Below are positions 1 to 59,668 of a DNA stretch of 64,000 bases, piece after piece. The stretch's first letter is position 1. Each line of letters opens with the position of its first letter. This DNA is from Podarcis vaucheri (Eukaryota): NCBI GenBank assembly GCA_965113315.1, contig OZ220367.1; one strand, written 5' to 3'. The notes under the pieces are model-generated. The model saw only the letters and a program-made list of their open reading frames with translations. It did not search any database and was not told the origin of the DNA. Made by a program: the position numbers and the translations under genes.

Positions 1-976
1 GCTACTCAGTTCACAGAGGAACCAGCCCATCCAACATGATACTACAAACTGTTCTGGACCGATGGAGTGCAGAGAACACTACAGAATGTCAGAATGGGAA
101 GAGGAGGCAAGTTCTTTTTTTATTTGTTGTTTTTTTTCCTGAAATTCTAACTTGCTTTTATTTTTAGTATAATTAGCATCACAGGAGAGTAAGTATCTGA
201 TTCTAGTAGTTATTCAATATGCAAAAACTCTTTTATGATAAATGTGCAGAATGGCAAGTACAGGAGATTCTTTGGATAGAAAATCTTTCATTTCTTCACT
301 GTTTTAACTTTGAAGGTTATATGTTGTGCACACACACACACACACAGCTTGTCAGGTGAACAAAGTGTAAAGTTTACAACGGTAGCAGAACAGCAAAATG
401 CCATTCTAGAATCCAGGAGAGGTTTCTGGAAAGACCTTTTAGTAGCAAAGCAACTGCTAAATGTTATGATACAAAAACTTCTAAATTAAAAAATGTTTCT
501 GTGTATTGCACTCTACCCAGTGCTACCTATTTCTGCAAATTAAAGAAAAAAAATAGTGTTAGAATTTTTTAAAACCATCATTAGGGGTTCAAAGCTCCTC
601 CCTGTCCAGAACCAAAACTACTTGTAGCCAAACAGGCTAAGTGTAGTCACATGTAGTTTTATCCACACGGCTGCTCAGTCCGCATGTGTGGAGGGTTTAC
701 TCTTTGCATGAAAAGGAGTGCCCACAGGATGGAAAAGAAGCCCATTTCTTGTCCCCTGCCTGACTTTGCTGCATGCGTCCCATTGCTTTAAGCAGCATTC
801 TCCCCTAGCCTGGCTCCAAGACTGAACATGAACTAAGAAAATGTCTTAATGCAGGAGAGCACAGTGAAGTGAAGTGAGGGTTAGTGGGTTGTTTCTCTCC
901 CCTTCCTCATGTACTCATTTTCCTGTAAAGTGCCCTGGTATCCCTGCTTCATAAGGATGGGACTCCCATCACATCT

Positions 977-1433
977 GTTGTTGTTTAGTTGTGTCTGACT
1001 CTTCGTGACCCCATGGACCAGAGCACGCCAGGCACTCCTGTCTTCCACTGCCTCATGGTCAGACTCATGTTGGCAGCTTTGAGAACAGTGTCCAACCATC
1101 TCATCCTCTGTCGTCCCCTTCTCCTTGTGCCCTCCATCTTTCCCAACATCAGGGTCTTTTCCAGGGAGTCTTCTCTTCTCATGAGGTGGCCAAAGTATTG
1201 GAGCCTCAGCTTCAGGATCTGTCCTTCCAGTGAGCACTCAGGGCTGATTTCCTTCAGAGTGGATAGGTTTGATCTTCTTGCAGTCCATGGGACTCTCAAG
1301 AGTCTCCTCCAGCACCAGAATTCAAAAGCATCAATTCTTCGGCAATCAGCCTTCTTTATGGTCCAGCTCTCACTTCCATACATCACTACTGGGGAAACCA
1401 TGGCTTTAACTATACGGACCTTTGTTGGCAAGG
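977..1433 (-). mobile_element. Bov-B (RTE-clade LINE) 5'-truncated 3' fragment
   Basis: ORF 985..1437 encodes an RTE-type RT C-terminus (KAMVSPVVMYGSESWTIKKADCRRIDAFEFWCWRRLLRVPW...LQYFGHLMRR). It has a CAA-type tail and a direct repeat TCACATCT at 969-976 and 1434-1441. Confidence 0.9.
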
Positions 1434-1908
1434 TCACATCTAGCTTGACTGAAATGGCATCAAGCAGAAAGCTGTCCCAGTGATAGCTTCCGATGCGCAG
1501 ACGTTTGAGGGTGACTGTTACAGAGCCCTAGAAGAACTGACTCATCTCTTCTCCTCCCTTGCCCCTCCATAGCTGCTTTTTCAGCTTTAGACACAGAAAG
1601 TTAATTCTCTCCCCCTTCTCGGCCACTGCAATGTCAGCTGCAAGTCAAAAGCAAAGCTGCAGAAGCCACTGATTAACAAAGCTACCCAGCCATGCTGCAA
1701 TGCCGTCTAAGTAATCATCTGGGTATCATGGAGTCTCTGTCCAGCGGGAGACTTAAAACAAAGATTTCTGTAGCTCCTGCAGCTCGGTTATTTAAGCCTG
1801 AAAGCAAATGTCTAAGGGCAGATCACTTGGCAGCTTCCCAGATTCTCGGTGTGGCATTTCAGCTCCAGCATTCTTCACTGGAGTGTTTGTTCATGTTATA
1901 AAGCCCAT

Positions 1909-2695
1909 TGTCACGGCTGCCTCAGGTCCCAGCTCACAAAGGACCAACACCAGTCTCTCTTTATATACAAAGGTCTTTATTGAAGTCCATTAGTTGTTCC
2001 ACAGTAGCGGCGCGCAGCCGTACGTCTGTTAGCTTAGACCGTAGAAGTCCCTTCTGAGTCGGTCCCCCCCCCTACACCAGCTTAAGATGCTGGCTTTGCT
2101 CCACCTCCTCCTGTCCTTCCTTTTCCGCAGGGTCTTTCTGCCCGCTGGAGTTCCGCCCCTCCTAGATTCTTCTGACGCTGAATCTCCCGACGGCTCTCCC
2201 TCCCTCCTGCGGGCTTTGGGACCTGGCTCCTCCCCCGGGCTCTCCGTTTCCCCGCGCGCTTGCACATTTGAACTTGGCGCGCGTGCCCAGTTTCCAACCC
2301 TTCTCCTGATGGTAACGTCACTCCTCTCACTGCTCCCCTCCCCTTCTGGGAGAGTGGCTTGTTCTGACCTCTCCTCCCTTCCAGCCAACGGAGCTGCTTC
2401 TCCTGACACACTGGAACTTCCCCCCCCTTCGCTACGCTCTGGAGGGGAAGCCGGCTTTGATCTCCAGCTGCTGCTTCGGGATTCCCTGTTGGCTCTTTCC
2501 CCCTGATGAGTCCCCCCTGGGGCTCCTTTCCCCCTGGCTACAGGCGCCCCCTCCTGGGAATCCCCTGATTCGCTGGAAAAGCTCATGGAGTCCCTTGGGC
2601 CCCAGTCCTCCTCCTCCTCCTCGCTGTCCTCGGACTCTGCCCAATGGTCCTCCCTCTCCTGCCTCCCATGTGCCTCTGCCCCTGAACCCCTGACA
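1909..2695 (-). mobile_element. Solo LTR (787 bp) of a Gypsy-like LTR retrotransposon
   Basis: TGTCA...TGACA termini, 5-bp TSD CCCAT (1904-1908, 2696-2700) and AATAAA on the minus strand at 1976-1981. The frame is open from 2695 to 2029 and resembles the LTR-encoded tail of the full element. Confidence 0.88.
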
Positions 2696-4249
2696 CCCAT
2701 GCTCATGTATATAGTGGGGGACCGGAAGCACTTAAATAGCAGACCCAGGCAATCTATCCAAAGGACAGCTACTGGGTTGTACTCCAGCCAAGTCAACTCT
2801 TCAGATTTATGTCTCAAATATGACCATATTTGGGGGGATTGGGGCGGGGAAGAAACATGAAGTGCCCTGAGCAACTTAGAGAAAGGGCAATATAAAAATG
2901 TTAGGAAAGCAAAAGGCATGTGTTAACACAAAAAAAAAAAAAAACATGCAACTTCGTGCTTCCTAGTGGCTGACTGGACAGTCTGTATGCTGGAGCTTAA
3001 TTAAATTAGTGGTTTAGTTAATCCTGTTCATGTAACCTGGGGTGAAGAAACACTTTCAGCCCGAAAATGGTGGTGCCAAGGGCAAAAGTCAGCAGAGCTG
3101 CAGCTGTAACTCTTACATACAGTGGCTGATATTCCAGCCATCCAAAGGTCAAAGGTTTCTATGCCCCCCACTCCATCCAGGCTGCAGGAGACTTGGGCAG
3201 TTCAAGGACACATTCCAGCTAGTCAAACGCACTCAAAGAAGGCACAGCAGAACCAATGAGAGGTGTGGCCAAGTGCTATTTTTGCATTAAAATGGTACCT
3301 GTTCTGACAATGGGGCAGATGGAGTAGAGAGGGGTTTTTTAATGGAACAAGGAATGTGGTTGGGTAATAAAGGAATAGAAAGTAGCTCTCCAATATATCA
3401 GAGAAACATGCCTGGTAGTTTACATAGGCACAAATGAAGTCTGTAGGAAGAAAGGAGAAGCTGCTTCATTCCTCTGTTTAGAAATGGTAACATGCACATA
3501 ACACGCACACTTAAGAACTCACCTGCTAAACAACTTTGTGTTCATTGTACTACCAACAGAAAATCACTAAAATTAAAAGACCATTTGGAACAATAGCTAG
3601 GTGTGCATTAAAATAACAAAAAGCCTAGAATTCCTTCTCTTAATTGCAGAGTTAATTTTAGGAATCCATCACCCTTAGTCAGGTCTTGTGCTCCACCCCA
3701 CAATGCAATGCTGAGCAACGTCCACACCTATTTTAACAATACGTCCCCTTTCCTAACTTGGCAGACGTGACCTACATCTGCAACCTCTCTTTCCCGTCTC
3801 CGGATTCACTATGCTCCTTCACAGTGGGCTCCTACCTAGGAACCTCAACTTTTATTATTCAGAGACCTACACTCCTTCCCCTTGCATCTCCAATCTAACT
3901 TGACACTTGAGACCAACCCAATAATTCCATAGCCTCTAGCTGCAGGTCACACAGATGAAAGCAAAAGACATGCTTAGGACTCCCCTGTACTCTTACAAAG
4001 AGTCTTCACAATCTTCCCTGCCACTACTCTTATACATTATTAAAGTACTATTTACTGAACAGCTGCATTTATTTATTTTCCAATACAATATGCTGTCTTC
4101 CGCTCATTTAGAAGCCAAGGGGTAGTGGTTCTTTCTGTTAAGGCTACGGATAGCACAGGTGTTGTTAGGTTTACCAGTTCTGAATATGCCACAGTAACTG
4201 CAGGCCATGAAATGGAAAGTCCCTTGTTGTATAAGGGAACCGGATAGGA

Positions 4250-4430
4250 AAATAGGAAGCTGACTTACACTGAGTCACACTCTTGGCTTATTCAGCTCAG
4301 TATTTTCACTGACTGACACTGGCTCTCCAGGGTTTCACGCAAGGGACATTTCCAGCCCACCCTGGAGACCCTGGGGATTGAAAGTGGGATCTTCTGCATG
4401 CATAGCAGATGCTCTACCACTGAGCTACAG
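4250..4430 (-). mobile_element. tRNA-derived SINE, degraded
   Basis: tRNA-like head on the minus strand (GTAGCTCAGTGGTAGAGCATCTGCT...) and an ...AGCTTCCTAT tail. A related copy lies at about 36195-36375 on the plus strand. Confidence 0.7.
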
Positions 4431-4726
4431 ACATTCCCATGAAATAAGGGGGTATATGGGCTCCTTCTATCCTTGGAAGGCATTTGATCAAGTAGAGGAA
4501 TCCCACTGACAGAAGGTGGCAGCAAGACTTTTGCCAACTCCCCCTGTAGCCCCCAGCATCACCACCTATAATGTTCAGAACTCCAAGACAGATTTCCTTT
4601 TATAATCATTTAAATAATTTAGTATTTAAATTAGTAAATTTACAATTCTAGGATTCTATGTATTAAATTTACTAATTTAATTGGAAGGGGCCCTGAGGGT
4701 CATCTAGTACATTAATTAATGATAAC

Positions 4727-5179
4727 TGTCAAGGGATGGTTAGCTGCTTGTGCTTAAAATTGTGCCCCTTCAGAGTTTGTGCGACCCCACAAACCTCTGT
4801 GTGTGACAGAGCTCCTCAGACATGTCTGCTCTAGTCACTAGTAGAGTCTGACAGTGGCTGTCTGCGGAAGCGCTTCCAGCAAAGAAGTTCCTTAACGGAA
4901 ACACGTCTCCTGGACTCACGACGTGGCAGCTTCCGGCGCAGCATGGGTCTCCCTGCAGTTGCTTCTGACACCTCCCCGCTATTTTCGCTCGAAGTGTCTC
5001 TCACCCCTTTCTCTCCCCTGCTGCTTCCTGCCTGGGCTGCTGCGTCTCTCTCAGCATTACTGAGATCCTCCTCCAGAGACCCCGCGCTCCCCCTGCTGGT
5101 CCCTGCTTTGGCTGTTGACTCTCTCCCAGTCTCTGGGAGCCTTACCACTTCCCTTTCCTCCGATGTCAGTTCCCTGACA
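4727..5179 (-). repeat. 3' LTR
   Basis: Direct repeat of 9836-10288; no difference found by eye. Confidence 0.95.
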
Positions 5180-6675
5180 TCCACCTCCCCTCCAGGGCCC
5201 CCCTCTCCCCCGCCCCTACTTTCTCCTCTGGGCGGTGAGGAGCTGAAACCCCTAAAAGAATCCTCTTCATCTTCAGACGTCTCGAACAATTCCCTCCATC
5301 GGTCTTCGTTCCGACTCGCTGAATCCTCCTCCACCTCGGAATCAGCGAACCCCTCCAACTCTTCTTCGTCGTCGGTGGTGGCGAAGTATTCCCTCCGGAA
5401 CCTCGCCACTGGCTGGGGTTTTCTAGGGAATCTCTGATGAAAAGTTTCAATCAAAACCTCGTCATCTACCTCCTCTGCCCTGACCCAGGTGTTTTCCGAC
5501 TCCGGCTCCCCTTCCCACATTACCAAATACTCTACTTGCTCTCCCCTCCACCTGGAATCGAGAATCTCCGCTACATGGTAGCTGTGTTCTTTTTCTTCCA
5601 TAGCTGGTCCCCTATTGACCCTCCCCTCTCTGTCCCCTATATACGGTGACAGCAATGATCTGTGGAACACTGGGTGCAACTTCATGTGGTTCGGTAACCG
5701 GAGTCTGAAAGCCACTGGGTTGACCTGTTGCGTGACTTCAAATGGGCCCAGTCTTTTGGGTCTTAACTTCTTACAACCTCCTTTAAATGGTAACCCTTGG
5801 GTGGACAGCCACACCTGGTCCCCCACCCTAATGCTTTCCCCTTCCCTTCTGGTTTTGTCTGCCTGCCTCTTATATTCCTCCTTCGCCCTGTTTAAATTAA
5901 GTTGGAGTTGGCGATGGATCGCTTCCATTTCTTCAACGAACTGTTCTGCGGCAGGAACGCTCCAGTTCTCCCCCTCCCCCCCTGGGAAGGCTCGGGGATG
6001 ACACCCGTGATTGGCCAAAAAAGGGCTCATCCCCGTGGACACGTTCTCTGCATTGTTATAGGCAAATTCTGCCAACGCCAGCTTCTCCACCCAATCATTC
6101 TCTCTGTCATTCACATAACACCTCAAATATTGCTGGAGGACACCATTAGCTCTTTCCGCCTGCCCATTGGTTTCTGGATGACGGGCAGTGGAAAAATTTA
6201 CCTCTACATGCAATAAGCTCATGAGCTTCCTCCAGAACCTGGAAGTAAATTGTTTCCCTCGGTCCGAAACCACCCTCAAGGGGGCACCATGCAACCTAAA
6301 CACATTTTCCACAAACAATTTAGCGGTTTCTTCTGCTGTGACCGCATGTGAGCAGGCTATAAAGTGGGCCATCTTGGTTAACAGGTCTACCACAACCATA
6401 ATGGCTGTCTTCCCTTTGGACCTGGGCAGATCAGTCATGAAATCTATTGCCACTGCCTCCCATGGTCTTTCCGGCGTGGGTAGTGGTTCTAATAAACCTG
6501 CCGGTGCCCGCCTCTCCCCCTTGGCTCGTTGACATCGGTCACACCCTCTCACATATTCACGCACATCTTCCCTGACCTTGGGCCACCAGAATTCCCTGGT
6601 AACCAGCCACATGGTTTTGTGTTGCCCAAAATGCCCTGCTGTGGGGCTATCGTGCAGTTGCTTGAGTACCTTTTC
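4831..6675 (-). CDS. pol: Pol C-terminal part: integrase (HHCC, DDE, GPF) plus chromodomain plus LTR-encoded tail
   Basis: HDSPTAGH...CDRC zinc motif; AIDFM/VSDRG/NGQAERAN catalytic triad; RLGPFEV; chromodomain YHVAEILDSRW...YLVMWEG...NTWV. It is out of frame with upstream pol at about 6675. Confidence 0.92.
   Translation of the reverse strand, partial: EKVLKQLHDSPTAGHFGQHKTMWLVTREFWWPKVREDVREYVRGCDRCQRAKGERRAPAGLLEPLPTPERPWEAVAIDFMTDLPRSKGKTAIMVVVDLLTKMAHFIACSHAVTAEETAKLFVENVFRLHGAPLRVVSDRGKQFTSRFWRKLMSLLHVEVNFSTARHPETNGQAERANGVLQQYLRCYVNDRENDWVEKLALAEFAYNNAENVSTGMSPFLANHGCHPRAFPGGEGENWSVPAAEQFVEEMEAIHRQLQLNLNRAKEEYKRQADKTRREGESIRVGDQVWLSTQGLPFKGGCKKLRPKRLGPFEVTQQVNPVAFRLRLPNHMKLHPVFHRSLLSPYIGDREGRVNRGPAMEEKEHSYHVAEILDSRWRGEQVEYLVMWEGEPESENTWVRAEEVDDEVLIETFHQRFPRKPQPVARFRREYFATTDDEEELEGFADSEVEEDSASRNEDRWRELFETSEDEEDSFRGFSSSPPRGESRGGGEGGPGGEVDVRELTSEEREVVRLPETGRESTAKAGTSRGSAGSLEEDLSNAERDAAAQAGSSRGEKGVRDTSSENSGEVSEATAGRPMLRRKLPRRESRRRVSVKELLCWKRFRRQPLSDSTSD
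5180..5194 (-). promoter_or_regulatory. Polypurine tract (plus-strand priming)
   Basis: Minus strand reads GGAGGGGAGGTGGA immediately before the 3' LTR TGTCA. Confidence 0.8.
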
Positions 6676-8837
6676 CCTTCAGGTATGTATAACGCTCCCT
6701 TGTAGTACAACGCCCCGTTTCTCTCCTCAAAACCCCCGGGTTTGTCTCCCTCCCTCCTGAGACCCCTGAGTTTGTCCTGGGCGTATTCATCCTGCACCGT
6801 TCCCTCTACCAGTTCCCTTTGCCCCACCAAAGCCGCCCCACACACCCAGCGGTCCTCGGGAATAACATGGGTCTCTTCGGGTGCACCCTCTCCCTCCAAA
6901 TATTCAGGTTTGCGTGAGAGAGCGTCCGCCCTAACGTTCTCCGGGCCTGGTACGTAACAAATCTCAAAGTTAAATTTGGAGAACTCCTGGGCCCATCTCA
7001 ACTGCCTTTGGTTGAGCACTCGCGCAGTTCTCCAATACTCTAGATTCTTATGGTCCGTGCACACTTGCACCTTCTGTTGTGCACCAATTAGTAGATGCCT
7101 CCATCTCCGGAAGGCCTCATAAATCGCAAGAAGTTCCCGGTCGTGCACCGTGTAGTTTCTCTCAGATTTGTTCAGCTTTCGCGAAAAGAAGGCACACGGT
7201 CGCCACTCTGACCCCTCCTTCCCCGGCTGCAGAAGAAGCACCGCCCCTATGGCTCTGTCCGAAGCGTCTGTTTCGACCCTCAGCTTTTTTTGTAAATCCA
7301 CATGTAGAAGTTGTTCGTCAGAGGCGAAGGCCCTTTTCAGTTCCTCAAACGCTCGCTCCGCCTCCCCCGTCCAAACAAACTTCTTTTTGCTGCTGAGACA
7401 GTCCGTGATGGGCGCCGTCAGGTGGGCGAAGTTTCGGATGAACTTACGATAAAAGTTTCCAAACCCTAGGAACCTCTGCACATCCTTCTTGGTTTTGGGT
7501 GTTTTCCATTCCAGCACCGCTTGAACCTTGCCGGGGTCCATGGCCAACCCCTTGTCTGACAAGCGGTACCCCAGGAATTCCACCTCCTTGGTATGAAACT
7601 GACACTTTTCCAGTTTCACCCACAGTCTGTTGGCTTGCAGCCTGCTCAACACTTCTCTGACATCTCTCACATGTTGCTCCTCATTCTCCGAATACACCAA
7701 CACGTCATCTAAGAAGGCCACGCAATTCTTGTAGAGCAAAGGCCCCAGTACATGGTTCATAAAGGCTTGAAAACACGCGGAGCCTGTTTGTAATCCAAAA
7801 GGCATAACGAGGTATTCAAATGCCCCCAAAGGGGTGAACATGGTGGTCTTCCATTCATCCCCTTTCCTTATACGTATCAGGTTGTACGCCCCCCTTAGGT
7901 CCAGCTTTGTAAAAATCTTTCCTTTTCGCACCCTGGTCAAAATATCATCAATCCTGGGCATAGGAAAAGCCGCCGGCTCTGTCACTGCATTTAGGGCCCG
8001 AAAGTCACATACCAGCCTCGGCTTGTCCGTGTTTTTTTTATCCACAAAAAACACTGGGCTACCCCCCGCTGCCTTGGACTCTCTGATGAAGCCTCTCTTC
8101 AGGTTCTTGTCAATGAACGCTCGCAACTCCTGCATCTCCCTGTCTGACATGGCATACAACTTGCCTACAGGAAGCTGTGCTCCAGGGAGTAAATTGATCT
8201 GGCAATCAAAGGGCCTATGCGGGGGTAGTTGGTCCGCTTCCTTCTCGCTGAACACGTCGCTGAGATCAGCATACTGTGGTGGCACCTTCCCCTTCTCCAT
8301 CACTTCCGTCCCTGCTAGGGTGGCTTGGGCCCCTGCTGACCCCTTTTCCGCCCTGCAGTGTTCTAAGCAGTGTGCGGAACCGAAGGAAACCACTCTTTGA
8401 TGCCAGCCCACCAGCGGATCATGTAGGGCTAGCCAGCTCATTCCCAAAATAATGGGAGCGCCTCCCAAGGTGGCCACATTAAACGCTATCAGTTCTGTGT
8501 GCCTTGCCACCCTCATTATCATTGGGACGGTCTGCAAGCTGACGCCTCCTCCCAACAGTTCCCTGCCATCAATCGTGGTCACCTGCAGGGGGTTGCTTAA
8601 AGGGATAGTCTGTATCTGGTGTTCAGCAGCAAACTCCTTGCTCATGAAATTGCAGGAGCTGCCTGAGTCCAACAGCGCCTTTATTTTTAGGGGGTGTCCA
8701 TTTTGCAGCTCTAGCGACACTTCAATCACTAGAGCAGGTCGAGGAGCTTCTGGCACTGGCACTTGGGGAAGGGGCACTTTCACTGCTCTTTGGCCTGGCT
8801 GCAGTGCCCTGCTGGCAACCAGGCGTTGGCTTTTACC
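6676..8837 (-). CDS. pol: Pol N-terminal part: aspartic protease, reverse transcriptase, RNase H
   Basis: ALLDSGS protease; KLDLRGAYN, VMPFGL and FLDD RT motifs; ETDASD, RELLAI and TDHKNL RNase H motifs. It lies in the -1 frame relative to gag. Confidence 0.93.
8772..8837 (-). promoter_or_regulatory. Gag-pol -1 programmed frameshift signal (G_GUA_AAA plus H-type pseudoknot)
   Basis: Heptamer at 8831-8837 and a 6-nt spacer. Stem 1 is GCCUGGUUGC/GCAGCCAGGC; stem 2 is GGGCACU/AGUGCCC. Confidence 0.8.
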
Positions 8838-9790
8838 TGCTCCGTTTCTCCCTGCTCTTCCCCCTCAACAGCTCCCACCATCCCTTGCCATTCCTTCCTC
8901 TGGGGGCAGACTCTGGCAAAGTGGCCTGGCTGTTGGCAGAGATAGCATTTCCGGGCTCCCTTTCCCTCCTTCTTCGCCCCCTCACTGGGCTTTGAAACTG
9001 CGCGCGCGCGGGCTGTTCCGATTTCCATCGGCTCTGCCGGCGGGAAAGCTGGCTCAGGAATGTCTGGAATGCGTAACTCCTTCCAACGTTCCCCTCTCCC
9101 TTCCCGCCTCTCCAAGGCTCTTGCCTCCTGGCGCGCTCCAATGGTCAGCGCAGATTTGGTCAGCTGATCCATAGACCCCGCCCTGGGGCTCCTGGCCAGC
9201 TCGTCTTTCACAGCTGAAGAAAGACCTTCTTCAAATAGCATCTGAATGGGTGCCGCCGATAAATCCCACCCCAATCTGTGAATCAGCATGGTAAATTCAG
9301 TCCAGTACTCACGGACAGATCTGCTTCCCTGCTTGCAAGCCATTAGCTGTCTGCGTACCAACCCTTCCTCAATATCGCTGGAAAACATGATATCCATTGC
9401 ACGAAAGAATTTCATAGTGTCCTTTAGGATATCGTTGTGCGTTGCCATCAGGGGTCGAACCCAGTCCCGCGCCCCCTTCTCAAGATGCCCAATTACGAAC
9501 GCAACTCGCGATTCCTCATCAGGGAACTCATCAAACTGCACATTCAGAGCATATTGCATCTCAGTCCTAAAGGCATGGTAATCCTTGGGGTCCCCCCCAA
9601 ACTTCTGCACCAATCCTGGTACCTTTCTGGGGAACTGAGTGGTTCTCCCCTTTTTGTCAGCATCCTGAGCCCTTCTCTCCTCGAGCCTCGCCGTCTGCAG
9701 CGCAAGTTGGACCTCCAGAGCTTGATACCTTTCTTCCAAGCTTGGACCAGCTCCAACCCCTGCGTCTCCGGTTCCGACTGGGTTGCTCAT
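8780..9790 (-). CDS. gag: Gag (336 aa), capsid plus CCHC zinc knuckle
   Basis: Intact ORF with the retrotransposon gag motif CKQGSRSVREYWTEF and zinc knuckle CYLCQQPGHFARVC. Confidence 0.93.
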   Translation of the reverse strand: MSNPVGTGDAGVGAGPSLEERYQALEVQLALQTARLEERRAQDADKKGRTTQFPRKVPGLVQKFGGDPKDYHAFRTEMQYALNVQFDEFPDEESRVAFVIGHLEKGARDWVRPLMATHNDILKDTMKFFRAMDIMFSSDIEEGLVRRQLMACKQGSRSVREYWTEFTMLIHRLGWDLSAAPIQMLFEEGLSSAVKDELARSPRAGSMDQLTKSALTIGARQEARALERREGRGERWKELRIPDIPEPAFPPAEPMEIGTARARAVSKPSEGAKKEGKGARKCYLCQQPGHFARVCPQRKEWQGMVGAVEGEEQGETEQVKANAWLPAGHCSQAKEQ

Positions 9791-9822
9791 GATGCTTTCT
9801 CCTGCACAGGCAGCGTACAGAG

Positions 9823-9833
9823 ACTGTCAGACT
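9823..9833 (-). promoter_or_regulatory. Self-priming primer-binding site
   Basis: AGTCTGACAGT lies 2 nt after the 5' LTR and is the exact reverse complement of LTR positions 9954-9964. There is no TGG tRNA-type PBS. Confidence 0.8.
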
Positions 9834-9835
9834 GC

Positions 9836-10288
9836 TGTCAAGGGATGGTTAGCTGCTTGTGCTTAAAATTGTGCCCCTTCAGAGTTTGTGCGACCCCACA
9901 AACCTCTGTGTGTGACAGAGCTCCTCAGACATGTCTGCTCTAGTCACTAGTAGAGTCTGACAGTGGCTGTCTGCGGAAGCGCTTCCAGCAAAGAAGTTCC
10001 TTAACGGAAACACGTCTCCTGGACTCACGACGTGGCAGCTTCCGGCGCAGCATGGGTCTCCCTGCAGTTGCTTCTGACACCTCCCCGCTATTTTCGCTCG
10101 AAGTGTCTCTCACCCCTTTCTCTCCCCTGCTGCTTCCTGCCTGGGCTGCTGCGTCTCTCTCAGCATTACTGAGATCCTCCTCCAGAGACCCCGCGCTCCC
10201 CCTGCTGGTCCCTGCTTTGGCTGTTGACTCTCTCCCAGTCTCTGGGAGCCTTACCACTTCCCTTTCCTCCGATGTCAGTTCCCTGACA
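9836..10288 (-). repeat. 5' LTR
   Basis: Direct repeat of 4727-5179. Confidence 0.95.
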
Positions 10289-11658
10289 ATAACTTTAATA
10301 TTTCTTTAAAAATATTAATAATTATTAATTTAAACTTAAGTGTTTCTTTCTAAAATAAAATAAAAAATTACCCTGGCCTTCCTCTCATAAGAGGCCAGGG
10401 CATCAAGTAACAAACATGACACACAAATGAATATCAGAAAACCAAACTAGTACAGAGAGGTACAGGACATTGTTTAGAGGCTTGCAGATTGCTGGAGGGT
10501 GCAAGGGACTGTGGTGAGGACCTGTAAAAGTTGCTTTCTCTCCCTCTCTCTCCACCACTCTCCACCTTTCACTAGTGAAAGCATCCCCTGAGCAGGAACT
10601 CTTCTCAGGCAACTTTCCTACTGTTGGAGCGGGGTGGGGGGGAATAGATCCAAGTCTATTTGGTATGCATCTAGATTCTTGTGCAATGTTGTTTCTGAAT
10701 GGTTCTAAAGGCAGCCGGAAAGTAAACAGGTTAATTTAAAACAAAACAAATCTCAAAACCCATTGTAACACCCACAACACAATAGCCCTCAGTCCCCTGG
10801 CTGATGGACAGGGCCATTATACATTTCCATTCTCCTCTCCATTGCCCAGACACCTGAGGGTTGGAACAGAGAGTTCTTTCAAAAAATGAGGGGACAATGT
10901 AAACTCTCTGAAGGTGCTCCTTCTCTGGCTGGTGGATGTGGCTAGGCTATTCTTCACCTTGCCATGATGTCCTTCTTTACAGATAATGCATCCACCCACT
11001 CAGAGTTTTAACTTCTAGAGACTTCAGAAACATAAAACTGTGAGGAATGACAAAACTAGCAGCAACAATAAAAAATCACCAAGGCATCACAAACGGGCAA
11101 GAATGGGGACAGTGACTAGGATTCTGAGTTTGGAACCACTGGAAGGAGGGGGGGAACCCTGCCTGAAGGTCCAATCATCAGAGACTCCAATCATGCAAGT
11201 GGAAGAGGGGACAGATATTACTTTTGTTGGATCCCTCTTCCTCCTGAAGTCCTGTCTGCCCCCTAACAGTTGTGCTAGAGGGTTGGGGACCCTCCAGAGC
11301 TGCATGATGAGTGATGCTGTGGACTACAGGATAAAGAGGGGACTCAACAAAAATTGCAGCCTCCTCTTCCACCCCCACCTTTGCTGGTAGAATTGTCTGC
11401 CAGAATCTTGGTTCTATCAATGAGACCTTCTATTCATGGATGCCTAATTAGTATTCAAGTCAATGGTTTTATGAATAAGAACCAGAAGATAGAAACTGTT
11501 CTTGGTAAAGAGTGACTGTCAGGGTGTATGTCATTTTGCCTGAATGGGATAGGCAGACTTTGCAAAGGAAGCAGCATCATGATTTTCTCATTACATACCG
11601 TACATCTCTTTACCTCACACCTGGCAAAATGGCTGAAACACAGGAAAAGTCCTTAGGA

Positions 11659-11796
11659 CAGGCATAGGCAAACTCGGCCCTCCAGATGTTTTTTGGCACT
11701 ACAACTCCCATCATCCCTCACCACTGGTCCTGTTAGCTAAGGATGGTGGGAGTTGTAGTCCCGAAACATCTGGAGGGCTGAGTTTGCCTATGCCTG
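11659..11796. mobile_element. hAT-type MITE
   Basis: Terminal inverted repeat (TIR) CAGGCATAGGCAAACTC, palindromic body and 8-bp TSD CCTTAGGA. Confidence 0.88.
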
Positions 11797-14589
11797 CCTT
11801 AGGATATCCCAATGCCATTTTTTCAGCGTTTAAAAAAGAAAGAAAGCTAAACTGCATTCATCTGTAGTGGTGAAATTTGTACCGAGGCTCAAGCATGGCA
11901 ACATTTTAGCACCTTTTTAAAATAGTAAAACACAACCTAAATGTAGTCGGATGCTTGAAAACAAAGTCATACACAATCTAGGAAAGAGAAACCAAACTGG
12001 GCATTGTATGGCTTCCATACAGGGTTTTTCGTCACCATGATGGCCTTTTTTATATAGGTCAAATGATCCAACACCATAAGCAATTTAGATGCTATTAACT
12101 CATCATAATTTCAGTGTATCCTGTAACCTATAATTTAGCTATGTCGCTCAGATACACAAACCAGTCCATCAGCATTAACAACAACAAATTGCACCATATA
12201 TGCAGCAGTGTGTACTTTACACATATTTATTGCAGAGGCTGTACTTTAATGACGCTAAATATGTAGCAACACAACCTATAAAACATATGAGGCTTAAAAT
12301 ATTCCTCTGCACTAAGGTTCTTACTGGATCAGCATTGCAGGCTCTTTCTCTCTTTCTCTCTAGCGTTAACAAATACCACGTTAAGCTTCTGTCGACATCC
12401 CTAATTGCAAGGAGGAAAACATTTACAATAACATGAAAATATCTTGGTTGTGTTTTTTTAAGGGTAGGTGTCTGTTCACACTTGGTCAGGATTACTTGGA
12501 TTAGAAGAAGAAAGGATTAAAAGTCAATGTAAGATGCTACAATTATTTTATTGAACTTGGAGCTAGCTTTTGGCAATTCACCTTCTACATCATATGTACT
12601 CTTTAGAGCAGTAGTTACCAAACATGGTTTCCCCTGGGCCACTTGAAAATTGCTTCAGGTCTTGGCAGATCACTTAATTCCAGACCTTCTCCTGTTTTGC
12701 TTCCCCTGTCTTGCCACCAGCCACGGCTTTATTTCTCTAAGGAAAAGCCTCCTCCCCAATCACTTCTGTTCCATCCTGCTCACCTTCCAGGCAGACCACC
12801 AAATTCTAAGAATCATGAAGTAGCCACTATGCCAGCTGTTCTTCACACGCGCACAGCTACTGTGCCCACCATTCTTCACACACACACAGATTCAACACCA
12901 CTATGCAGAGTCACCACCATGAGCCTCCTCATGGTTGAAGTTCATGCACTATTGGTGGTCCCCAGAGCACTTTAGGAACCCCCACTTTAGAGCCCTGATT
13001 TGAAAATAGAATAGAATAGCTCCATGTTGGCCATGCTGAACTCCTTGGAAGAAAGGCAAGATTCAAACAAGATAAAACATACTCATACTGGCTGTCATCT
13101 TTGGGAAGGCAACCAGTTTAGATGAGCCTTTGGTCTCTCTTTCCACATAAAATTCCATCTCTACCTGGATTATATTTTCTTGCCTCTCAAAAATAATTCT
13201 CACAAGGTTAAATGAAAAACAAGCATATACAGTTTGTGGGTTGTAGGGTTTAACTTCAATTTAACAGCTTACTACTAGTAGTAGTAGTCTAATAAAGAGG
13301 AGTAGAGGAAGTCTTCACAAAGACAATACCATGCTAGTGAAACTGACTTTGCGTCTGTTAAAAAATGCTTTGAAGTCCCCATCTGATCATATGCAGTAGA
13401 CATGAATGCCTTTAAGGCTCACAGGAGTTCACTACAAGGGCATGAAGGGAAGCACTGTGCTGCTTGCATTACTGAAGAAGCTATTGCCCAATTAGTGCCA
13501 CAACTGCCATGGACGCTGGCAGTTAACAAAAAGAGCAAATGAGAAAGCACAGCTTTAAGATGACAAAGCTCATTAGTGGAAGATCAATCCAAGGGCATGC
13601 TTGAACAACTGCCCAGTACTCCCAACACGTTAAAGGCCTCACACAGATCTCCTCATTGAGCAAGCTTATTGCTAGGAGTTGGCAGAGGTGGCTTAAAAAC
13701 CTATAGATTACATAATGTCATTTTTGGGGAGAAGTGCTGTTTTTAAGGGATGCTTTTTAAAAAATGTTTTAAGTCTATCCAAGACACAATCGTCCCAGCT
13801 CATTGTATAGTACAGCAATGGGGGACCTGGGACCTTTCAGAAGTTTCCTGATTACAACCCCCACCAGCCCCAGCCAGCATGGCCAACAGTCAAGGATGAT
13901 GGGAGTTGTAGTCCAACATCACCTTGGAAGGCATCATGTTGGGTACATCATTTAGTATCCTGTATTTTGTCTGTATCTATAAATAATCTAAAATGTCAAG
14001 CATTCACACAACACAGGAAGCCAAGCTTTACAATCCCTGTGCTCCTAGTAGGATTACACTTGGTGCAATGAGTGTGTACATAGCTTCAGATGACATTGTG
14101 GGGTTTTCCAGTTCAGATTCAGTTGCTGTTCCAACTTTTATATTCTTTGCTGTAAATTGAAGTCACTGCTACTTGTCCCTTTTTCAGTGGCTTTGGTAAA
14201 CCACTGTCTTCTGACTTCATAAGCACACGCTGCTGGTAAAACCAATATTGAAATTGTTCCAGGCATCTTGAAATCTCTCTGTTGAGAAAGGAAGGGCAGA
14301 AAGGGGAGGCGTTTGGAAAGAGAGGAAGCCGAAACATAGGAAGTTGCTACCTGTAAAAGCTGTGTCAGCAAGCTGAGATCATGGGGCTTTCTCCTTGTTT
14401 AGAGTCATCATAGACCACAGCATATGAAGTCAAGTGTTTCCTACGGAAGTCCAACCAAGGTCCTCCACTTTCACAAGTGAAGCTTGAATTGCTGCATCTC
14501 ATTGACAAGGTACCGCACAAAGGCTCCTGAGCAAGCTTTACAGTCATGGAATGAGAGGCGAAGCCCTCTTATGGATCAGAAATTGGTTA

Positions 14590-18468: not shown

Positions 18469-20227
18469 GTAAATGACTTTAAAAATAAATAAATCAGGAA
18501 TTTCTGATACAGTTGTTTTAGAGAGGAGTTAATAATTTATACAGTTGTACCTCCTTTTTAGTACCACGTTGTTAGTTGAGTTTCACATAACAGCAGTTCA
18601 TTTAGAAGACTTCCCAAAAACAACCATTGGTTATTTCCATTCCTGCTTAGCATTCTAACCAAGCTCGTGAGGTCATTGTCTTTAAACCTCGAACCATCTA
18701 ATAAACAGACTACCCCTGGTTCACACACACATCCTTTCTTTAATAATCAAAATTCACAAGTACCCCTAATGAAGCTCCTCATTATCAATATATTTGAAAA
18801 AAGATAACCATACCTGTATATACACCACAATCTAGTGAAGATAACCCTTGCTCGCATGCCATTCACTTTCAGAAAACCACTATGCATGCAGTTCCACTTG
18901 CTACACAGCTGCAGCCAGCATTTGGCATTCTCAACACAGTTCCTGCTGCTGGGCTTGGAATGCATGGGCAGTGCCAAAGAGTAGAGACTGCCTGTGGTGT
19001 CAGGTTTGGGGGAACCCTAGATTGAAGACTCCATATTCTCCTCCTCTTAAAAAAAAGCAAGCAAACAAATATAGCAGTGCTATCAATGCCAATAGCACAA
19101 TGATCTGATTGGCAGGTATGTATGCAAGCAGATACTCACCTACAGCCTGCTACTGCATTCGTGAGTCTAGAGACTGGCAATTAGGAATTTAATCAAGCAC
19201 CTGGTGGTCCTCACTACATGATCAGCATGCCACAAAAATACCCTATGATTCACAGGACTTAGAAGCCTGATGCAGTCTGAACTGATGGGTAAAGAGTTCC
19301 TAAAGCAAGGGAGGCTCTCTTGCAGCGTTGCACCACAAATGGCATAAAAAGCAGGACCCAAGGTTTGGCTAGACAGGAGCAGGATGATCTGTGGTTCTCG
19401 TGTTGTCACAGATTTAGCACTACCCCGCACAATCTCTGAACTCGGCTTGCAGCCTCATTGCTTCCAAACCTTCAATAAATGGAGAATTTACAGTTTCCTT
19501 AGGCAGCTCATTCTGCTGCTGAACTGGTCTTAAGAGTTATGAACACAGCATATATTTATGTTCCAGTCTTCCCCCTCCCTTTCAATACCCTTTTGTGTCC
19601 TTGAATAAGACTCCGAGGGCTCATCCCAACAAGCCTTTGCATGCAGACAGGATCTTAGTCACTGGCATCACTAAGCATACTTGTGCAGCTGGCTGCTATT
19701 CGGAGTTTAAAACCATGCACGCCCTGCCACCTCATTGCTGGAGCTGTGGTCTGAAGCCCTTTTCTGTAGCGTGCAAACATAGCAGTGTAATAAAAACATT
19801 TTCTTGAAAGAGGAGGGCAACTCCCCTGGCTGTACCAGGTGTAGAACCTCACTCTGCTGACCTCCTAAGAACCACCCTGCTGAATCAGACCAAATATTTA
19901 TGCATTCCAGCACTACATTTCCAGCAGAGCCCAACCAGGTGCTTCACAAGCGGAGACAAAAAGCAATAGCCACCTCTAGTTGTTAATCCCAAACAACTGC
20001 TATCCATCATGTCTAATTGCACCCTTTCTACATGCTCCACAGTTACTCAAATGTGATAGATGAGTGTGCATCCAGAAACAGTTTCTGGATTCCTTCTGTT
20101 CACATAAATTAGGGGGATGTGACTCTTGATTATAGGGGTAACTATTGAGTTATTGTTGTTATAGTTCTGTATGAATAGCTACGATTGTTAAACCAACTTA
20201 GACCATTTCTTTCCATCATTCCCATAG

Positions 20228-21270
20228 ATCATCATCAACATCTGGGTCAAGGCAACAGTATTTTAGCCAACTGTTCACAAGATCTACCTGGGAATTCTAC
20301 CAGTAATGAATTCACAACCATTGTCTTACCTGTGCTTTACCTCGTCATATTCCTGGCTAGCATCTTACTGAACAGCTTGGCTGTATGGATTTTCTTCCAC
20401 ATCAGAAACAAGACCAGCTTTATCTTTTACCTCAAAAACATTGTGGTTGCGGACTTGATGATGACCCTGACATTTCCATTTAAAATCATCCAGGACTCAA
20501 GACTGGGGCCATGGTACTTCCATTTTTTCCTGTGCCGGTATTCGACCGTTTTGTTCTACGCCAACATGTACACTACGATTGTGTTCCTTGGGCTCATTAG
20601 CATCGATCGTTATCTGAAAGTGGTCAAACCCTTTGGGGATTCCAGGATGTACAGCATCAGGTTCACCAAGATTCTGTCTGCGTGCGTTTGGATTGTCATG
20701 GCATTTTTAGCCTTGCCAAATGTGATCCTTACAAATGGTCATGCAACTAGGAAAAACGTAGGCGACTGCTTAAAGCTAAAGAATTCCCTGGGAGTCAAAT
20801 GGCACAGAGCTGTCATTTACATCAACAACGGCATGTTTGTCGTTGTACTGATAGTATTGATAGGATGTTACATTGAAATATCAAAGTATATCTACAAATC
20901 AAGCAAACAATTTACCAGTCCTTCAAGTCGCAAACGGAAGCACAACCAAAGCATAAGGGTGGTTGTAGCAGTGTTTTTCACGTGTTTCTTGCCATATCAT
21001 TTGTGCAGAATACCTTTTATTTTTGGCCACCTAGATAAACTTTTGGATGAATCGGCACACAAAATCCTGTACTACTGCAAGGAAGTGACACTTTTCCTTT
21101 CTGCGTGCAACGTGTGCCTAGATCCAATCATCTACTTTTTCATGTGTAGATCATTTTCAAGAAGGATGTTTAGGAAATCAAACATGCGAACGAGGAGCGA
21201 AAGCATTAGATCGCTTCAGAGTGTTAGAAGATCAGAGGTGCGAATATATCATGAATACGTTGATCTGTGA
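20228..21270 (+). CDS. GPR87: G protein-coupled receptor 87, main coding exon (358 aa after splicing)
   Basis: 7TM protein with [46 protein letters not shown] and [19 protein letters not shown]; acceptor CCCATAG at 20227. Confidence 0.96.
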
Positions 21271-21826: not shown

Positions 21827-22870
21827 ATTGCAATATTTATTGTTTAATAACAAATCCTCAGAAACTACTTGAATTCACTTTCATGGGAGGTCATTGTTTT
21901 CTTCATAATATTATATGAGGAGCAACCAGTTTACCCAGAATTTGTTTCTATATTTTCATGCAATTCTCACTCTTAGATAAGATGCTCCTATTGCTATTAT
22001 AGCCAAATCCCGAACTTGATCAAGCCATTCTTTGCAAGAAAGGAGTAATGTAACTTACCAGTATTGAGTCATTAACATTCTTGCAGCTGTTAACAGATAG
22101 AATGTAGGCTACTTATGTTCTTCTTTATGATATAGACCAGCAACATAAACAATGGATTCATTGTTAAACAAATGGGAGCCAAAAATCATTGCCAATCTAC
22201 TTCATATCAGCCAGAGATCTATTAGCGGATCCTCTTCTATCTACTGGCCACTCCTGCACTACAGTAAACATGTTTCTACAGAAGAGATGTGACGGTGATG
22301 CATTTTTAATTTATAGCTGCCAACTTTTCCCTTTTTTTAAGGGAAATTCTCTTATTCCAAATAGGATTCCTCACAAGAAAAGGCAAAAGTTGACAGCTAT
22401 GTTTTAATTGCCTCACTTTCTTTCTGAAGGAAAAACCTATAATTAAATCCATATAGTAGTTGGATGAGGCATTCTCCTTAATCTTATTTATAGTATGTTT
22501 TGACTGAGGAGTATTAATAACTATCACACTCTAATGTGATAGAATCTAATGCAGTAGATTAGCACATGGAATTCTGGGTGCTGCCAAACATGATCAATTT
22601 AAAATTAAACCTCATGTATTGTAGTTATGTTGCACAACCAGAAGGTGGCAAGAAACTATTGTTGATTCATGCTGATTCATTTTTATACATTCCAATTATG
22701 TTTCCCCTTACTTGCCTTTCTTTCTAATTTTTTTTTAACTGTAGCTTCTAGAACTGAAGACAGTACTCCAAGTGGGATTGCACCATAGATTTGTAAAAAG
22801 AAGCAAGTACCTGTTTCTTTAAAAAAAAAAAATCCTTTTCTGGTTATCCCTAACATGGTATGTGCATGTT

Positions 22871-23079
22871 ACAGATAGGTAGCCGTGTTGGTCTGCCATA
22901 GTCAAAATTAAAAAAATTCCTTCCTGTAGCACCTTAAAGACCAACTAAGTTAGTTCTTGGTATGAGCTTTCGTGTGCATGCACACTGTGTATCTGAAGAA
23001 GTGTGCATGCACACGGAAGCTCATACCAAGAACTAACTTAGTTGGTCTTTAAGGTGCTACAGGAAGGAATTTTTTTATT
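22871..23079. mobile_element. Penelope-like element remnant with inverted pseudo-LTR
   Basis: About 77-bp inverted arms (22910-22986, 23000-23076), direct flank ATGGTATGTGCATGTT (22855-22870, 23080-23095) and a hammerhead-like core. Confidence 0.8.
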
Positions 23080-23624
23080 ATGGTATGTGCATGTTTCACA
23101 GCTGCTGTGCACTGGTCATTGTGGTGTGTGAGAGTCTGTGGCTATGTATAGTTCTGTGTGTAACCATAGACTTATCAGTTGATGTCCTTCCCCAATCTGG
23201 TGGCCCCCAGGTGTTGTTGAACAGGTCTTTGAGGCAACCCATTTACTGAGCATTCATCCTGAATTGCTTATGCAGAGGTCAGACGATGTCTGCTCCTTAT
23301 ACAACATTCTGATTTGACAGGGGAAGCAGAGTGACTGCTGATAAAATCAGTAGCCTCCTATTCCTTTTCCCACCGCAAAGTCTAGTGATGCAAAATTAAT
23401 GTGACAACCCTGTACTGCTAGTTTTCCCACTGCACTTCATTACCTGGCAGGCCAGGGAAACGCTGAGCACTGTCAGTGCCACATAATGCAATATGAGATT
23501 ACTGGGAACTGTGGGAGAAGGGAGAGAGGCTGCAGCTTTTGCAGGCAGCTACATGAGTCTTGTATGTCCTAGTTCCAATGCTATGTATTTAAGAGGGAAA
23601 CTGCTCTTCCTGAGGAGCTTACAT

Positions 23625-24208
23625 TAGGGTTACCAAACATCCCCAGTTCCCGGGGACAGTACCCGGATTTGCAAATCTGCCCCTGGAATGTCCCCAGATT
23701 TGCAAATCTGTCCCTGGGAAATGTGGCAGCAGCAGCCTCAGCAGCCCGGAGCCAGCCTGTTAGTGCAGTTGGCTCTGGCTGGCTTATGGAGCTGCTCGCT
23801 GCCGTGGCGCCCGCCATTTTTTCTGTGACACGGCAGCCAGCAGCTCCTGAAGCCAGCCAGAGCCAACTGCACTAACAGGCTGGCTCTGAGCTGCTGAGGC
23901 TGCCACTACCAGGCTCACCCCTCCCGGGCCATGACTCCCGAGCCTTCCCTGATCTATCAAAACAAAGGGGGGGAGGAGATCAGGGAACGCTCGGGAGTTA
24001 TGGGCGGGCGGCACACCGTTGCCCAGTTAAAAAAAAACTCTGCGCATTTATGTTTCACAGGGTGCAAAAGAAGGGCTTTACACCTTTATATAATATGCTT
24101 GGGCCAAGGGTCTTTTGCCTCACCTTCCCCACTACTGACTCCCTGTTGCTACCCAACTTCAAAAAAAAAAAGGGTCCCCGGATTCATTGAAAAAAAATGG
24201 TAACCATA
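23625..24208. mobile_element. Non-autonomous hAT DNA transposon
   Basis: TIR TAGGGTTACCA / TGGTAACCATA, 8-bp TSD GCTTACAT and an internal inverted repeat of about 60 bp. Confidence 0.85.
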
Positions 24209-29835: not shown

Positions 29836-30397
29836 TCATCATTTGTCATCTGCTGGTAGAAGAGGTGATGGTTTGGTCTTGCATTGGACCCATGGTCCAA
29901 TTTAGTACACCCATCAAACATTCGCCAACAGCTGCTCAGCTTCACTGGTTATGTTATTCTGTGTGTTCTCTTATACCTCCCTTATACAGCAATAGTACTC
30001 AAACTTCTTCATAGTAGCAAATATCAAGACAATATTCATGCTTAGGCTCCCAAAAAACGCCCAGAAAGTTTGCACCTGTGGATGTGAAACCTACACTGGC
30101 TGCAAAGTACATTATATTTCAGCATACTGAACAAACATTGCTCTGTGCATTTTTGCCTCTGGTCATACCCACAGCAGGCAAATGCCACCCCTGGAAAGTT
30201 CCCAAGAATGGCTGAAAAAGGCTCCCAATTCCTGCTCTTGCGGAAACATATTTGATTTAGCTCCATGCAAAAATGTTCCTGAATGTGGTCTTCATGTGCC
30301 ATATAGGAAGATACATGGGGGGATTCTGCTGCAGGTGGATAACTCTTGTGGATAACTCTTTCTTTCTCTGCTCACAGGAACTGAAAATGCACTAGAG

Positions 30398-31411
30398 ATG
30401 CCTAATTCAAGCACTCCTCTAGGAAACTCCTGCAGCTTCAATGAGATAATAAGAAAACAAGTTCTTCCAGTTGCCTATGGTCTGATCTTTCTAGGAGGAA
30501 TCCTGTTGAATGGGGTGGCAGCCTGGGTCTTTCTGTACATTCCCAGCAAGACAAGTTTTATCGTCTATCTCAAGAACATTGTGGTTGCTGACCTCATCAT
30601 GAGCTTAACTTTCCCATTTAAAGTTTTCGCCGATTCAGAAATTGGATCTTGGCGGCTCAGTGTTTTCGTCTGCCGTTTTTCAGCAGTCATATTTTACCTA
30701 AATATGTATATCAGCATAACACTGTTTGGTCTCATAGGCTTCGACCGATGCTACAAAGTTGTGAAGCCTCAGTTCATCACATCTTTCCATACTGTTCGAT
30801 GTAGCAGATGTATCTGTGTAGCCGTGTGGGCACTTCATATAGTGATATCACTTCCCAATACAATTTTAACCAATCAACATCCTACCAAAAATCTTTCGAA
30901 GAACTGTGTGAACCTCAAAAATGAACTTGGAGTCCAATGGCACAAGGCTTCGAACTACATCTGCTTAGGAATTTTTTGGACTGTCTTTTTACTCCTAATA
31001 GCCTTTTACAGTTCTATAGCAAGGAAAATATATCTATCCCACCAAAAATTCAGGAAAAACTCCAAACGGTCAAGGAAAAAAACCAATCGGAATATTTTCA
31101 CCATCATGCTTGTATTTATCATTTGCTTTGTCCCATACCATGTTGTAAGAATCCCATACACATTGAGTCAAACTGCTTCACATCATTATAACTGCCTAAC
31201 AAAAGAGGTGTTGTTTTACCTAAAGGAGCTTTCTCTGCTCCTGTGTGCTGCAAATGTTTGCCTTGATCCTATTATTTATGTATTTCTTTGCCAACCCTTC
31301 AAGGAAAGGTTGTACCAAAAATTGCACCTCAAGTTGAAGGTGTCTGAGGAATTAGAAAACTCTAGATCTAAAAAGTCAAATGTGATTTGTGAAACAGTAG
31401 TTATTCCATAA
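30398..31411 (+). CDS. P2RY14: P2Y purinoceptor 14 (UDP-glucose receptor), 337 aa, single coding exon
   Basis: 7TM protein with [53 protein letters not shown] and CLDPIIY. Acceptor CTCACAG at 30377; syntenic between GPR87 and GPR171. Confidence 0.95.
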   Translation: MPNSSTPLGNSCSFNEIIRKQVLPVAYGLIFLGGILLNGVAAWVFLYIPSKTSFIVYLKNIVVADLIMSLTFPFKVFADSEIGSWRLSVFVCRFSAVIFYLNMYISITLFGLIGFDRCYKVVKPQFITSFHTVRCSRCICVAVWALHIVISLPNTILTNQHPTKNLSKNCVNLKNELGVQWHKASNYICLGIFWTVFLLLIAFYSSIARKIYLSHQKFRKNSKRSRKKTNRNIFTIMLVFIICFVPYHVVRIPYTLSQTASHHYNCLTKEVLFYLKELSLLLCAANVCLDPIIYVFLCQPFKERLYQKLHLKLKVSEELENSRSKKSNVICETVVIP

Positions 31412-34513: not shown

Positions 34514-35048
34514 CTGTATTTTTCGCTCTATAAGACGCACTTTTCCCCTCCTAAAAAGTAAGGGGAAATGTGTGTGCGTCTTATGGAGCGAATGCAGGCA
34601 GGAGGCTCTGCTCAGCGCTCCCTTTAAAGAGCCGTGTGGAGTGTGTGTGCAGCTTTTCGGGGCTTTCCCCCGAGGAGGGAGAAGGGCTGCCCTTCTTGGG
34701 GGACCCTTAGCCGCGTGCAGCCTCTCCCGGGCAGGGAATGAAGGCTCCCCTTGCCCGGGAGAGGCTGCGCGTGGTTATCCCATGAGCCAAGATAGCCAGC
34801 GGGATCGCTGCGATCCTGCTGGCTGTCCTGGCTTCTTGTTTAACCGCACACAGCCTCCGCAGGGCACGGGGAGCCTTCATCCCGCTGCCCTGTGGAGGCT
34901 TCGTGCGGCTATCCCTGGCTTTTGCGGGAGGTGGGGGGAAGGGACAGAGCGCACTCTGCTCAGCGCTCCCTTTAAAGAATACTTTTTCCCCCTCTAAAAA
35001 TTAGGTGTGCTTTATCGGCTGGTGCGTCTAATAGAGCGAAAAATACGG
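34514..35048. mobile_element. pogo/Tc2-like non-autonomous DNA transposon
   Basis: TIR C(C/T)GTATTTTTCGCTCTAT..GACGCAC, TA TSD and GC-rich interior; same family as 59762-60683. Confidence 0.85.
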
Positions 35049-39177: not shown

Positions 39178-39347
39178 TTCTTAACAACAGTCACAGATTT
39201 GGTTAGGTATTGTGCGACACTATTGCTTACCGAAAGACAGTTTATTTGTTTGTTTATTTCTCTCTCTCTCTCTCTCTCTCTCCCAACTCCAGGTTTTGTC
39301 TCTCAGAAAAGGTGCACATACTTTGCCTCTCCTGTGAATCATTTAAG

Positions 39348-56483: not shown

Positions 56484-56493
56484 TATATTATTA

Positions 56494-56735
56494 CAGTGGT
56501 ACCTCAGGTTAAGTACTTAATTCGTTCCAGAGGTCCGTTCTTAACCTGAAAGTGTTCTTAACCTGAAGCAGCACTGTAGCTAATGGGGCCTCCAGCTGCT
56601 GCCGTGCCGCCAGAGCACGATTTCTGTTCTCATCCTGAAGGAAAGTTCTTAACCCGAGGTACTATGTCTGGGTTAGTGGAGTCTGTAACCTGAAGCGTAT
56701 GTAACCTGAAGAATATGTAACCTGAGGTACCACTG
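56494..56735. mobile_element. Tigger-like MITE
   Basis: TIR CAGTGGTACCTCAGGTTA; internal AACCTGAAG repeats. Confidence 0.85.
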
Positions 56736-59423: not shown

Positions 59424-59668
59424 GAAGAAGAGTTTGGATTTGATATCCCGCTTTATCACTACCCTAAGGAGTCTCAAAGTGACTAACATTCTCCTTTCCC
59501 TTCCTCCCCCACAACAAACACTTTGTGAGGTGAGTGAGGCTGAGAGACTTCAGGGAAGTGTGACTAGCCCAAGGTCACCCAGCAGCTGCATGTGGAGGAG
59601 CAGGGAAGCGAACCCAGTTCACCAGATTACAAGTCCACCACTCTTAACCACTACACCACACTGGCTCT
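59424..59668 (-). mobile_element. CORE-type tRNA-derived SINE
   Basis: Minus head GAGCCAGTGTGGTGTAGTGGTTAAGAG, CORE-like GCTGGGTGACCTTGGGCTAGTCAC and a CTT tail. Confidence 0.8.

Follow-up and report, generated by a model that had tools for sequence, protein, structure and literature searches.

The window, that is, the whole 64,000-nucleotide stretch of Podarcis vaucheri DNA that was analysed, carries near its start two features derived from Gypsy-type retrotransposons, a solo long terminal repeat (LTR) of a family termed B and a full-length element of a family termed A, both on the minus strand. Elsewhere, three single-frame rhodopsin-family GPCR ORFs of 351-368 aa (PF00001) lie on the plus strand at 20179-21270, 30356-31411 and 39207-40313, and probably form a tandem receptor cluster. 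A stop-free frame of 331 codons on the minus strand (59651-60646), with no Pfam match, lies in a region of overlapping open frames and a 55-nt repeat. Inverted-repeat elements (MITE or DNA-transposon-like) and SINE copies occupy 22866-23082, 23724-23911, 34735-34883 and 56490-57892, and a very high-copy repeat occupies 1000-1495. The solo LTR has the following parts:

1904..1908, unstranded: left target-site duplication (TSD), CCCAT
1909..2695, minus strand: solo LTR of family B, 787 bp, TG..CA (TGTCA..TGACA)
2696..2700, unstranded: right TSD, CCCAT, whose reverse complement supplies the host ATG 2700-2698
2029..2694, minus strand: U3-coded C-terminal tail of pol/integrase, 221 codons in the solo copy
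2074..2145, minus strand: basic block and R-x-R..L-x-W motif (GRKTLRKRKDRRRWSKASILSWC)
2045..2055, minus strand: 11-nt complement of the family primer-binding site (PBS), the self-priming target and predicted RNA 5' end
2082..2085, minus strand: TTAA, an inferred TATA-like promoter element at position -30 relative to the predicted start, where it shares bases with the Leu codon of L-x-W
1976..1981, minus strand: predicted AATAAA polyadenylation signal

The solo LTR is an ordinary LTR copy and a real feature. The boundaries given in the preliminary description (787 bp with TSD CCCAT) were confirmed, with TGTCA..TGACA ends on the minus strand, as was its observation that the frame enters this LTR and the 453-bp LTR of family A in the same phase (GTC AGG, V-R, from LTR base 2 in the solo copy; D|VR in the other) without a long match between them, the best blastn match covering 17 nt (E 0.52). 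The open frame of about 220 codons to a stop at 2029 also stands, at 221 codons to TAA 2031-2029, but that stop is peculiar to this copy: a difference in G-run length at about 2062-2070 places its last approximately 12 codons in another frame (..CRGGDRLRRDFYGLS), and the majority of family-B copies end ..CRGGTDSEGTSTV with a TAA at 2036-2034. Among 24 distinct family-B LTRs, the frame reaches the WSKAS motif in only 10 and is lost before the tail motif in 14. Neither a Pfam search with the solo ORF nor an Rfam search of window positions 1-12000 returned a match, and the ESM Atlas gave no usable match to the solo tail.

Contigs of all three DNA runs examined (X1, X4, X8) contain the empty site, with 1903 joined to 2696, and hence the insertion is likely recent and not fixed. 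An X1 contig also holds a joint from 2695 to 1909 with 27 other letters between LTR end and LTR start, which suggests that two LTRs of the family lie almost head-to-tail somewhere.

Pol and its entry into the 3' LTR

The full-length family-A element provides the second LTR of the window and the coding sequence that precedes it:

4727..10288, minus strand: full-length family-A element with identical 453-bp LTRs (4727-5179 and 9836-10288) and TSD GTTAT
8780..9826, minus strand: gag frame, an ORF within the element
4831..5178, minus strand: LTR-coded pol tail, 115 codons
4845..4855, minus strand: self-priming target, the complement of the PBS that adjoins the 5' LTR (below 9836)
5431..5580, minus strand: integrase chromodomain (PF00385, E 8e-12), without the third cage aromatic
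5347..5406, minus strand: TIM-like sequence motif 1 (ARFRREYF-ATTDDEEE-LEGF)
5245..5304, minus strand: TIM-like sequence motif 2 (DRWRELF-ETSEDEEDS-FRGF)

Its pol is split by a frameshift near 6660-6680. The family-A LTR (4727-5179) lacks AATAAA and has many copies elsewhere with 100% identity, indicating that the family is very young. Pol enters the 3' LTR in 7/8 family-A copies and in 5/5 copies of a third, more distant family, C, continuing there for 110-116 codons. Family C (L143-L147; P0014 cluster) has a single gag-pol frame of about 1560 codons, and its LTR-coded tail is acidic and then basic (..RRSARL..). In a sister family of B, one copy with identical LTRs (L108) encodes a single pol of 1561 codons that runs through the polypurine tract (PPT) and MD|VR to WSKARVLSWC and a stop, its end inside the LTR reading ..WSKARVLSWCARGGDSDGSSPT. 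Continuity of the frame is thereby demonstrated directly in natural copies. Annotated Podarcis muralis pols in UniRef have MD|VR followed by 209 aa (P0009 and nine cluster members among those listed) or VD|VR followed by 100-115 aa, although these gene models may bridge frameshifts. A profile of the C-terminal motif matched 5 of 107 proteins, namely four P. muralis pols and one unnamed Logan protein; the range of the motif beyond lacertids was examined by word-based searches. A tree of reverse transcriptase and RNase H (RT-RH), built from 26 rows without a named Sushi or Tf1 reference, united the families as (C,(A,B)) (94/95) and placed them next to chromoviruses of fish and frog (83/77).

The solo LTR of family B had 2047 candidate matches in the genome at first look, of which the best 40 showed 97-100% identity, and the matches include full-length family-B elements with LTRs about 5.8 kb apart, in which pol extends approximately 200 codons beyond the chromodomain to a G-rich PPT. 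Of 30 assembled family-B junctions, pol and the LTR frame share a register in only 8, and the two other phases account for 15 and 7. Five of the in-register eight come from a subfamily of deleted array copies that has a stop 45 codons upstream of the LTR, and none of the full-length copies examined is unbroken from protease to the stop. This is the main result against the reading of pol through the LTR. It is softened by two observations. The G-runs at which out-of-register copies depart from the frame are not the same from copy to copy, and nearly identical array copies disagree among themselves, which points to slippage or long-read error as the source of the differences. Further, with sister families pooled, the in-register class was favoured in short-read contigs (64% and 50% by depth) and in RNA reads (6/6 and 9/12, from runs under another species label).

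The arrays themselves lie at 34.3-37.5 Mb of contig G000:C41 (L034-L040), where a deleted family-B unit of 3.72 kb, comprising the LTR joined to mid-RT without gag and sharing the stop 45 codons before the LTR, is repeated head-to-tail, the longest array having at least five LTRs. Several places carry such arrays, bounded each time by the same, apparently LINE-like sequence. This contig is very rich in these Gypsy families and holds most of the best matches; it is possibly a sex-limited chromosome.

Alternatively, the U3 frame could be a separate accessory gene (nef- or sag-like) read from a spliced or internally started RNA, with solo LTRs expressible from host ATGs. Consistent with this, B-like families have an ATG in the PPT (GGMD) as well as internal ATGs, and many assembled family-B junctions are out of register. 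However, A-like families have no ATG at the PPT position, and the contexts of LTR entry (GGMD|VR in B, GEVD|VR in A and GDG|VM in C) share no start codon, which argues against a separate gene. Moreover, unbroken copies fuse the frame to pol, and no splice-like joint into the LTR was found in two RNA runs (another species label). Together with the evidence on flanking ATGs given below, these findings make a separate gene highly improbable.

Selection on the LTR-coded tail

Composition offers another account, in which a purine-rich, T-poor U3 with a T-rich TATA-like element at -30 would produce both the open frame and the similar tail, the latter being dispensable read-through. Dinucleotide shuffles of the whole LTR have a median longest frame of 112 codons already, and the linker of the tail varies from 100 to 220 aa between families. 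Comparison with composition-matched shuffles, as had been proposed, nevertheless found frames this long to be uncommon: 221 codons or more were present in 0.8% of dinucleotide shuffles of the whole LTR, in 0.26% of 60-nt-block shuffles and in 1.9% of shuffles of the ORF part alone (n=5000 each), and a frame open from base 2 in 0.12%.

In four pairs analysed in detail, two of which include the solo LTR itself, dN/dS of the LTR-coded part was 0.27, 0.35, 0.20 and 0.17 (Fisher P 1.6e-5, 1.3e-5, 1.7e-5 and 9e-18, respectively), with values of 0.10-0.23 over the last 35-45 codons that contain the terminal motif and of 0.18-0.43 (P<=4e-3) in the linker; RT/RH as control gave 0.10. Over all 25 pairs of natural copies, which are not independent, the LTR frame gave 0.23-0.59 compared to 0.78-2.2 in the other two frames. 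Within family B, variants among 24 distinct LTRs of 40 (16 array copies having been dropped) gave pN/pS of 0.57 (shared) and 0.67 (singleton), neither of which is significant; by this measure the neutral expectation of the NG86 method is near 0.67, not 1, and the ratios between families are well under that level. Against composition as the cause, the third-position and synonymous excess is confined to this frame, in both linker and motif, and was not found downstream of the stop. Purifying selection on the frame is thus demonstrated, and the frame-specific tests largely refute the account from composition, leaving it very unlikely. What U3 encodes is the end of pol, a part whose protein sequence is conserved from family to family. 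The earlier proposal, that LTRs with coding capacity are conserved in this lizard chromovirus lineage, is borne out in three lineages and in the pols of P. muralis. The R-R-x-S..W of the LTR-coded tail may resemble the nucleosome-binding motif of CENP-C.

Self-priming, predicted promoter and flanking ATGs

In families A, B, the sister family and C, the PBS is complementary to 9-12 nt within the element's own LTR and the two sites covary across families, demonstrating the complementarity. In A and B the stop follows the self-priming site by 19-22 nt, and in C it precedes the site by about 43 nt. B-like LTRs have TTAA at -28 to -30 of this site, and three of five such LTRs compared also have AATAAA some 75 nt downstream; the predicted leader fold has a z of -2.4 in family B and is weak in family A (z -1.7). 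In A as in B, the invariant L-x-W maps to -29/-30 relative to the self-priming site, as expected were the similar tail a product of composition, and hence part of this similarity may be shared with promoter constraint, though its Leu is variously encoded (CTT/TTA/TTG) and the Arg codons show synonymous variation.

Since almost all of the frame precedes the predicted start, transcription from the promoter of a solo LTR itself would leave it out. Translation from host sequence was considered in view of the flanking ATG, which the preliminary description placed in frame at 2698-2700. It is indeed in frame, has A at -3 and G at +4 as a separate gene might, and is accompanied by a second in-frame ATG at 2706-2704 (minus strand), but it is unremarkable: an in-frame upstream ATG precedes 9 of 31 LTR starts other than those at a PPT (two pairs of which are probably duplicates) compared to 27.5% of random sites, and 3.7% of random sites have one within 2 codons. 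This rate, equal to chance, stands against the accessory-gene account, as does the finding of no reads over the flank 2736-3479 in one RNA run (another species label). Two RNA runs (another species label) gave patchy coverage of the family with no start or end peak, and no RNA dataset was listed as containing the family stretch. The suggestion that solo LTRs scatter ready-made ORFs was therefore not upheld in a functional sense, given a predicted start about 20 nt before the stop, ATGs at the rate of chance, loss of the frame in 14/24 LTRs and the empty site in three DNA runs.

Very probably, then, the frame represents the last part of pol in a lacertid clade of Tf1/sushi-type chromoviruses, in which pol extends past the chromodomain, through the PPT and over the whole of U3. 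The LTR-coded part keeps its protein sequence from one family to another and likely forms a disordered tail by which the integrase is imported into the nucleus or tethered to chromatin. The genomic RNA would begin in the 5' LTR, approximately 20 nt short of the stop, and end in the 3' LTR, past the poly(A) signal, such that only the 3' copy of U3 would be translated, within Pol. U3 would also act as promoter, with L-x-W encoded on the -30 element. The product would be a disordered integrase tail of acidic block, linker, basic block and L-x-W, likely for nuclear import or nucleosome contact by analogy with the integrase tail of Ty1 (PMC8487063). The solo LTR presumably formed by LTR-LTR recombination and is likely untranslated and silent.

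Integrase tails and related elements

Tf1/sushi (V-clade) chromoviruses such as Sushi-ichi and Amn, as described in PMC6317226, share with the lacertid elements the order PR-RT-RH-IN, followed by a chromodomain that was called for A and C, TG..CA ends, a 5-bp TSD and a self-priming layout, in which the PBS is complementary to the element's own 5' end. Placement in this group agrees with the Gypsy order (integrase after RT-RH), the self-priming PBS and the RT phylogeny found here. Relatives in catfish, carp and frog end 54-69 aa past the chromodomain with the Y-W-Y cage (defined in PMC3605345) intact, whereas lacertid A and B have tails of 190-390 aa that fill U3, contain FxGF motifs and accompany partial (A) or nearly complete (B) loss of the cage. 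The U3 of Sushi is described as T-rich (PMC3601003), in contrast to the T-poor coding U3 of the lacertid elements. Entry of pol into the 3' LTR is in print for plant elements, namely CRM group A, with its CR motif in the 3' LTR, and Reina Bingo1-4 and 7 (PMC3059260, PMC3605345). As described there, however, CRM group A is primed by tRNA-Met and has CR instead of a chromodomain; the lacertid elements have a PBS complementary to their own LTR and a degenerate chromodomain upstream of the PPT. They are convergent on the plant CRM/Reina elements, not a member. A literature search of partial coverage returned no vertebrate or lizard element described with pol running into the LTR. The integrase of Ty1 likewise has a large disordered C-terminus, of which a short segment contacts a host targeting factor, but Ty1 is a copia element with a different gene order, a tail that is not LTR-coded and Pol III as partner (PMC8487063, PMC10050235).

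Upstream of the LTR, PF00385 was called for A and C, and no precomputed call was available for the B-like P0008-P0010. Family B keeps ILDSRW and SWVP without the cage aromatics; A and B miss one to three residues of the cage, and C, fish and frog retain all three. An ESM Atlas search with the family-A tail returned only Chromo clusters, at 0.83 or below. Between chromodomain and PPT, F-x(7-10)-[FLMI]-x-G-[FW] is present in 26/26 copies with a located junction (28 chromodomain matches, minus two without one) and in 1/60 other chromovirus tails, the chance rate of one motif per shuffled tail being 0.6-2%. A-like copies mostly have two such motifs with acidic linkers, B-like copies have one with an S/T-rich linker, and no FxGF motif was found in family C.

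These integrase-tail motifs just upstream of the LTR resemble the motifs with which host proteins bind LEDGF, a chromatin tether. TND-interacting motifs (TIMs) bind a TND, such as the IBD of LEDGF/HRP2, via their phenylalanines. A TIM is described as a helix, an acidic linker of 8-16 aa and FxGF (PMC9987994), an anatomy found in A-like elements; B-like elements match its spacing and FxGF with a linker that is S/T-rich, not acidic, unlike the host motifs. The IBD-binding motifs of JPO2, PogZ, MLL1 and IWS1 have a helix, an S/T/D/E linker of 8-10 residues and FxGF, as do the lacertid motifs, and those of JPO2 are in tandem as in family A (PMC9987994, PMC8022399); the lacertid motifs differ in lying within a retrotransposon integrase. 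Lentiviral integrase, according to PMC5053271, binds the IBD via its catalytic core, not via a TIM-like motif, and the literature search, again of partial coverage, found no TIM-like motif reported in a retrotransposon integrase. A score derived from the lacertid motifs, which is post hoc, anchored and not independent, placed JPO2 and PogZ at the head of 5735 windows drawn from 216 proteins. Two LEDGF-domain genes are present in the genome. When the IBD of lizard LEDGF (P0110, residues 398-482) was folded together with TIM-like motif 2, without alignments, the score was 0.16 against a mark of 0.34, which counts neither for nor against binding. Tentatively, and at somewhat less than even likelihood, the sequence resemblance may mean that the lacertid A/B chromoviruses swapped reading of methyl-lysine by the chromodomain for mimicry of LEDGF/HRP2 partners, one or two TIM motifs and the U3-coded basic tail tethering the integration complex to transcribed chromatin, convergent on the host factor of HIV integrase.

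For annotation, the consequence is that hundreds of lacertid solo LTRs will resemble genes of 100-220 codons. For the elements, the result is a vertebrate LTR in which the whole U3 is both predicted promoter and, backed by a selection test, coding sequence for an integrase tail, a layout otherwise found described, within the partial coverage of the literature search, only for plant chromoviruses. If the FxGF motifs bind LEDGF or HRP2, this would be a retrotransposon with linear-motif mimicry of a known retroviral tether, and such binding, if true, would explain why loss of the chromodomain cage is tolerated.
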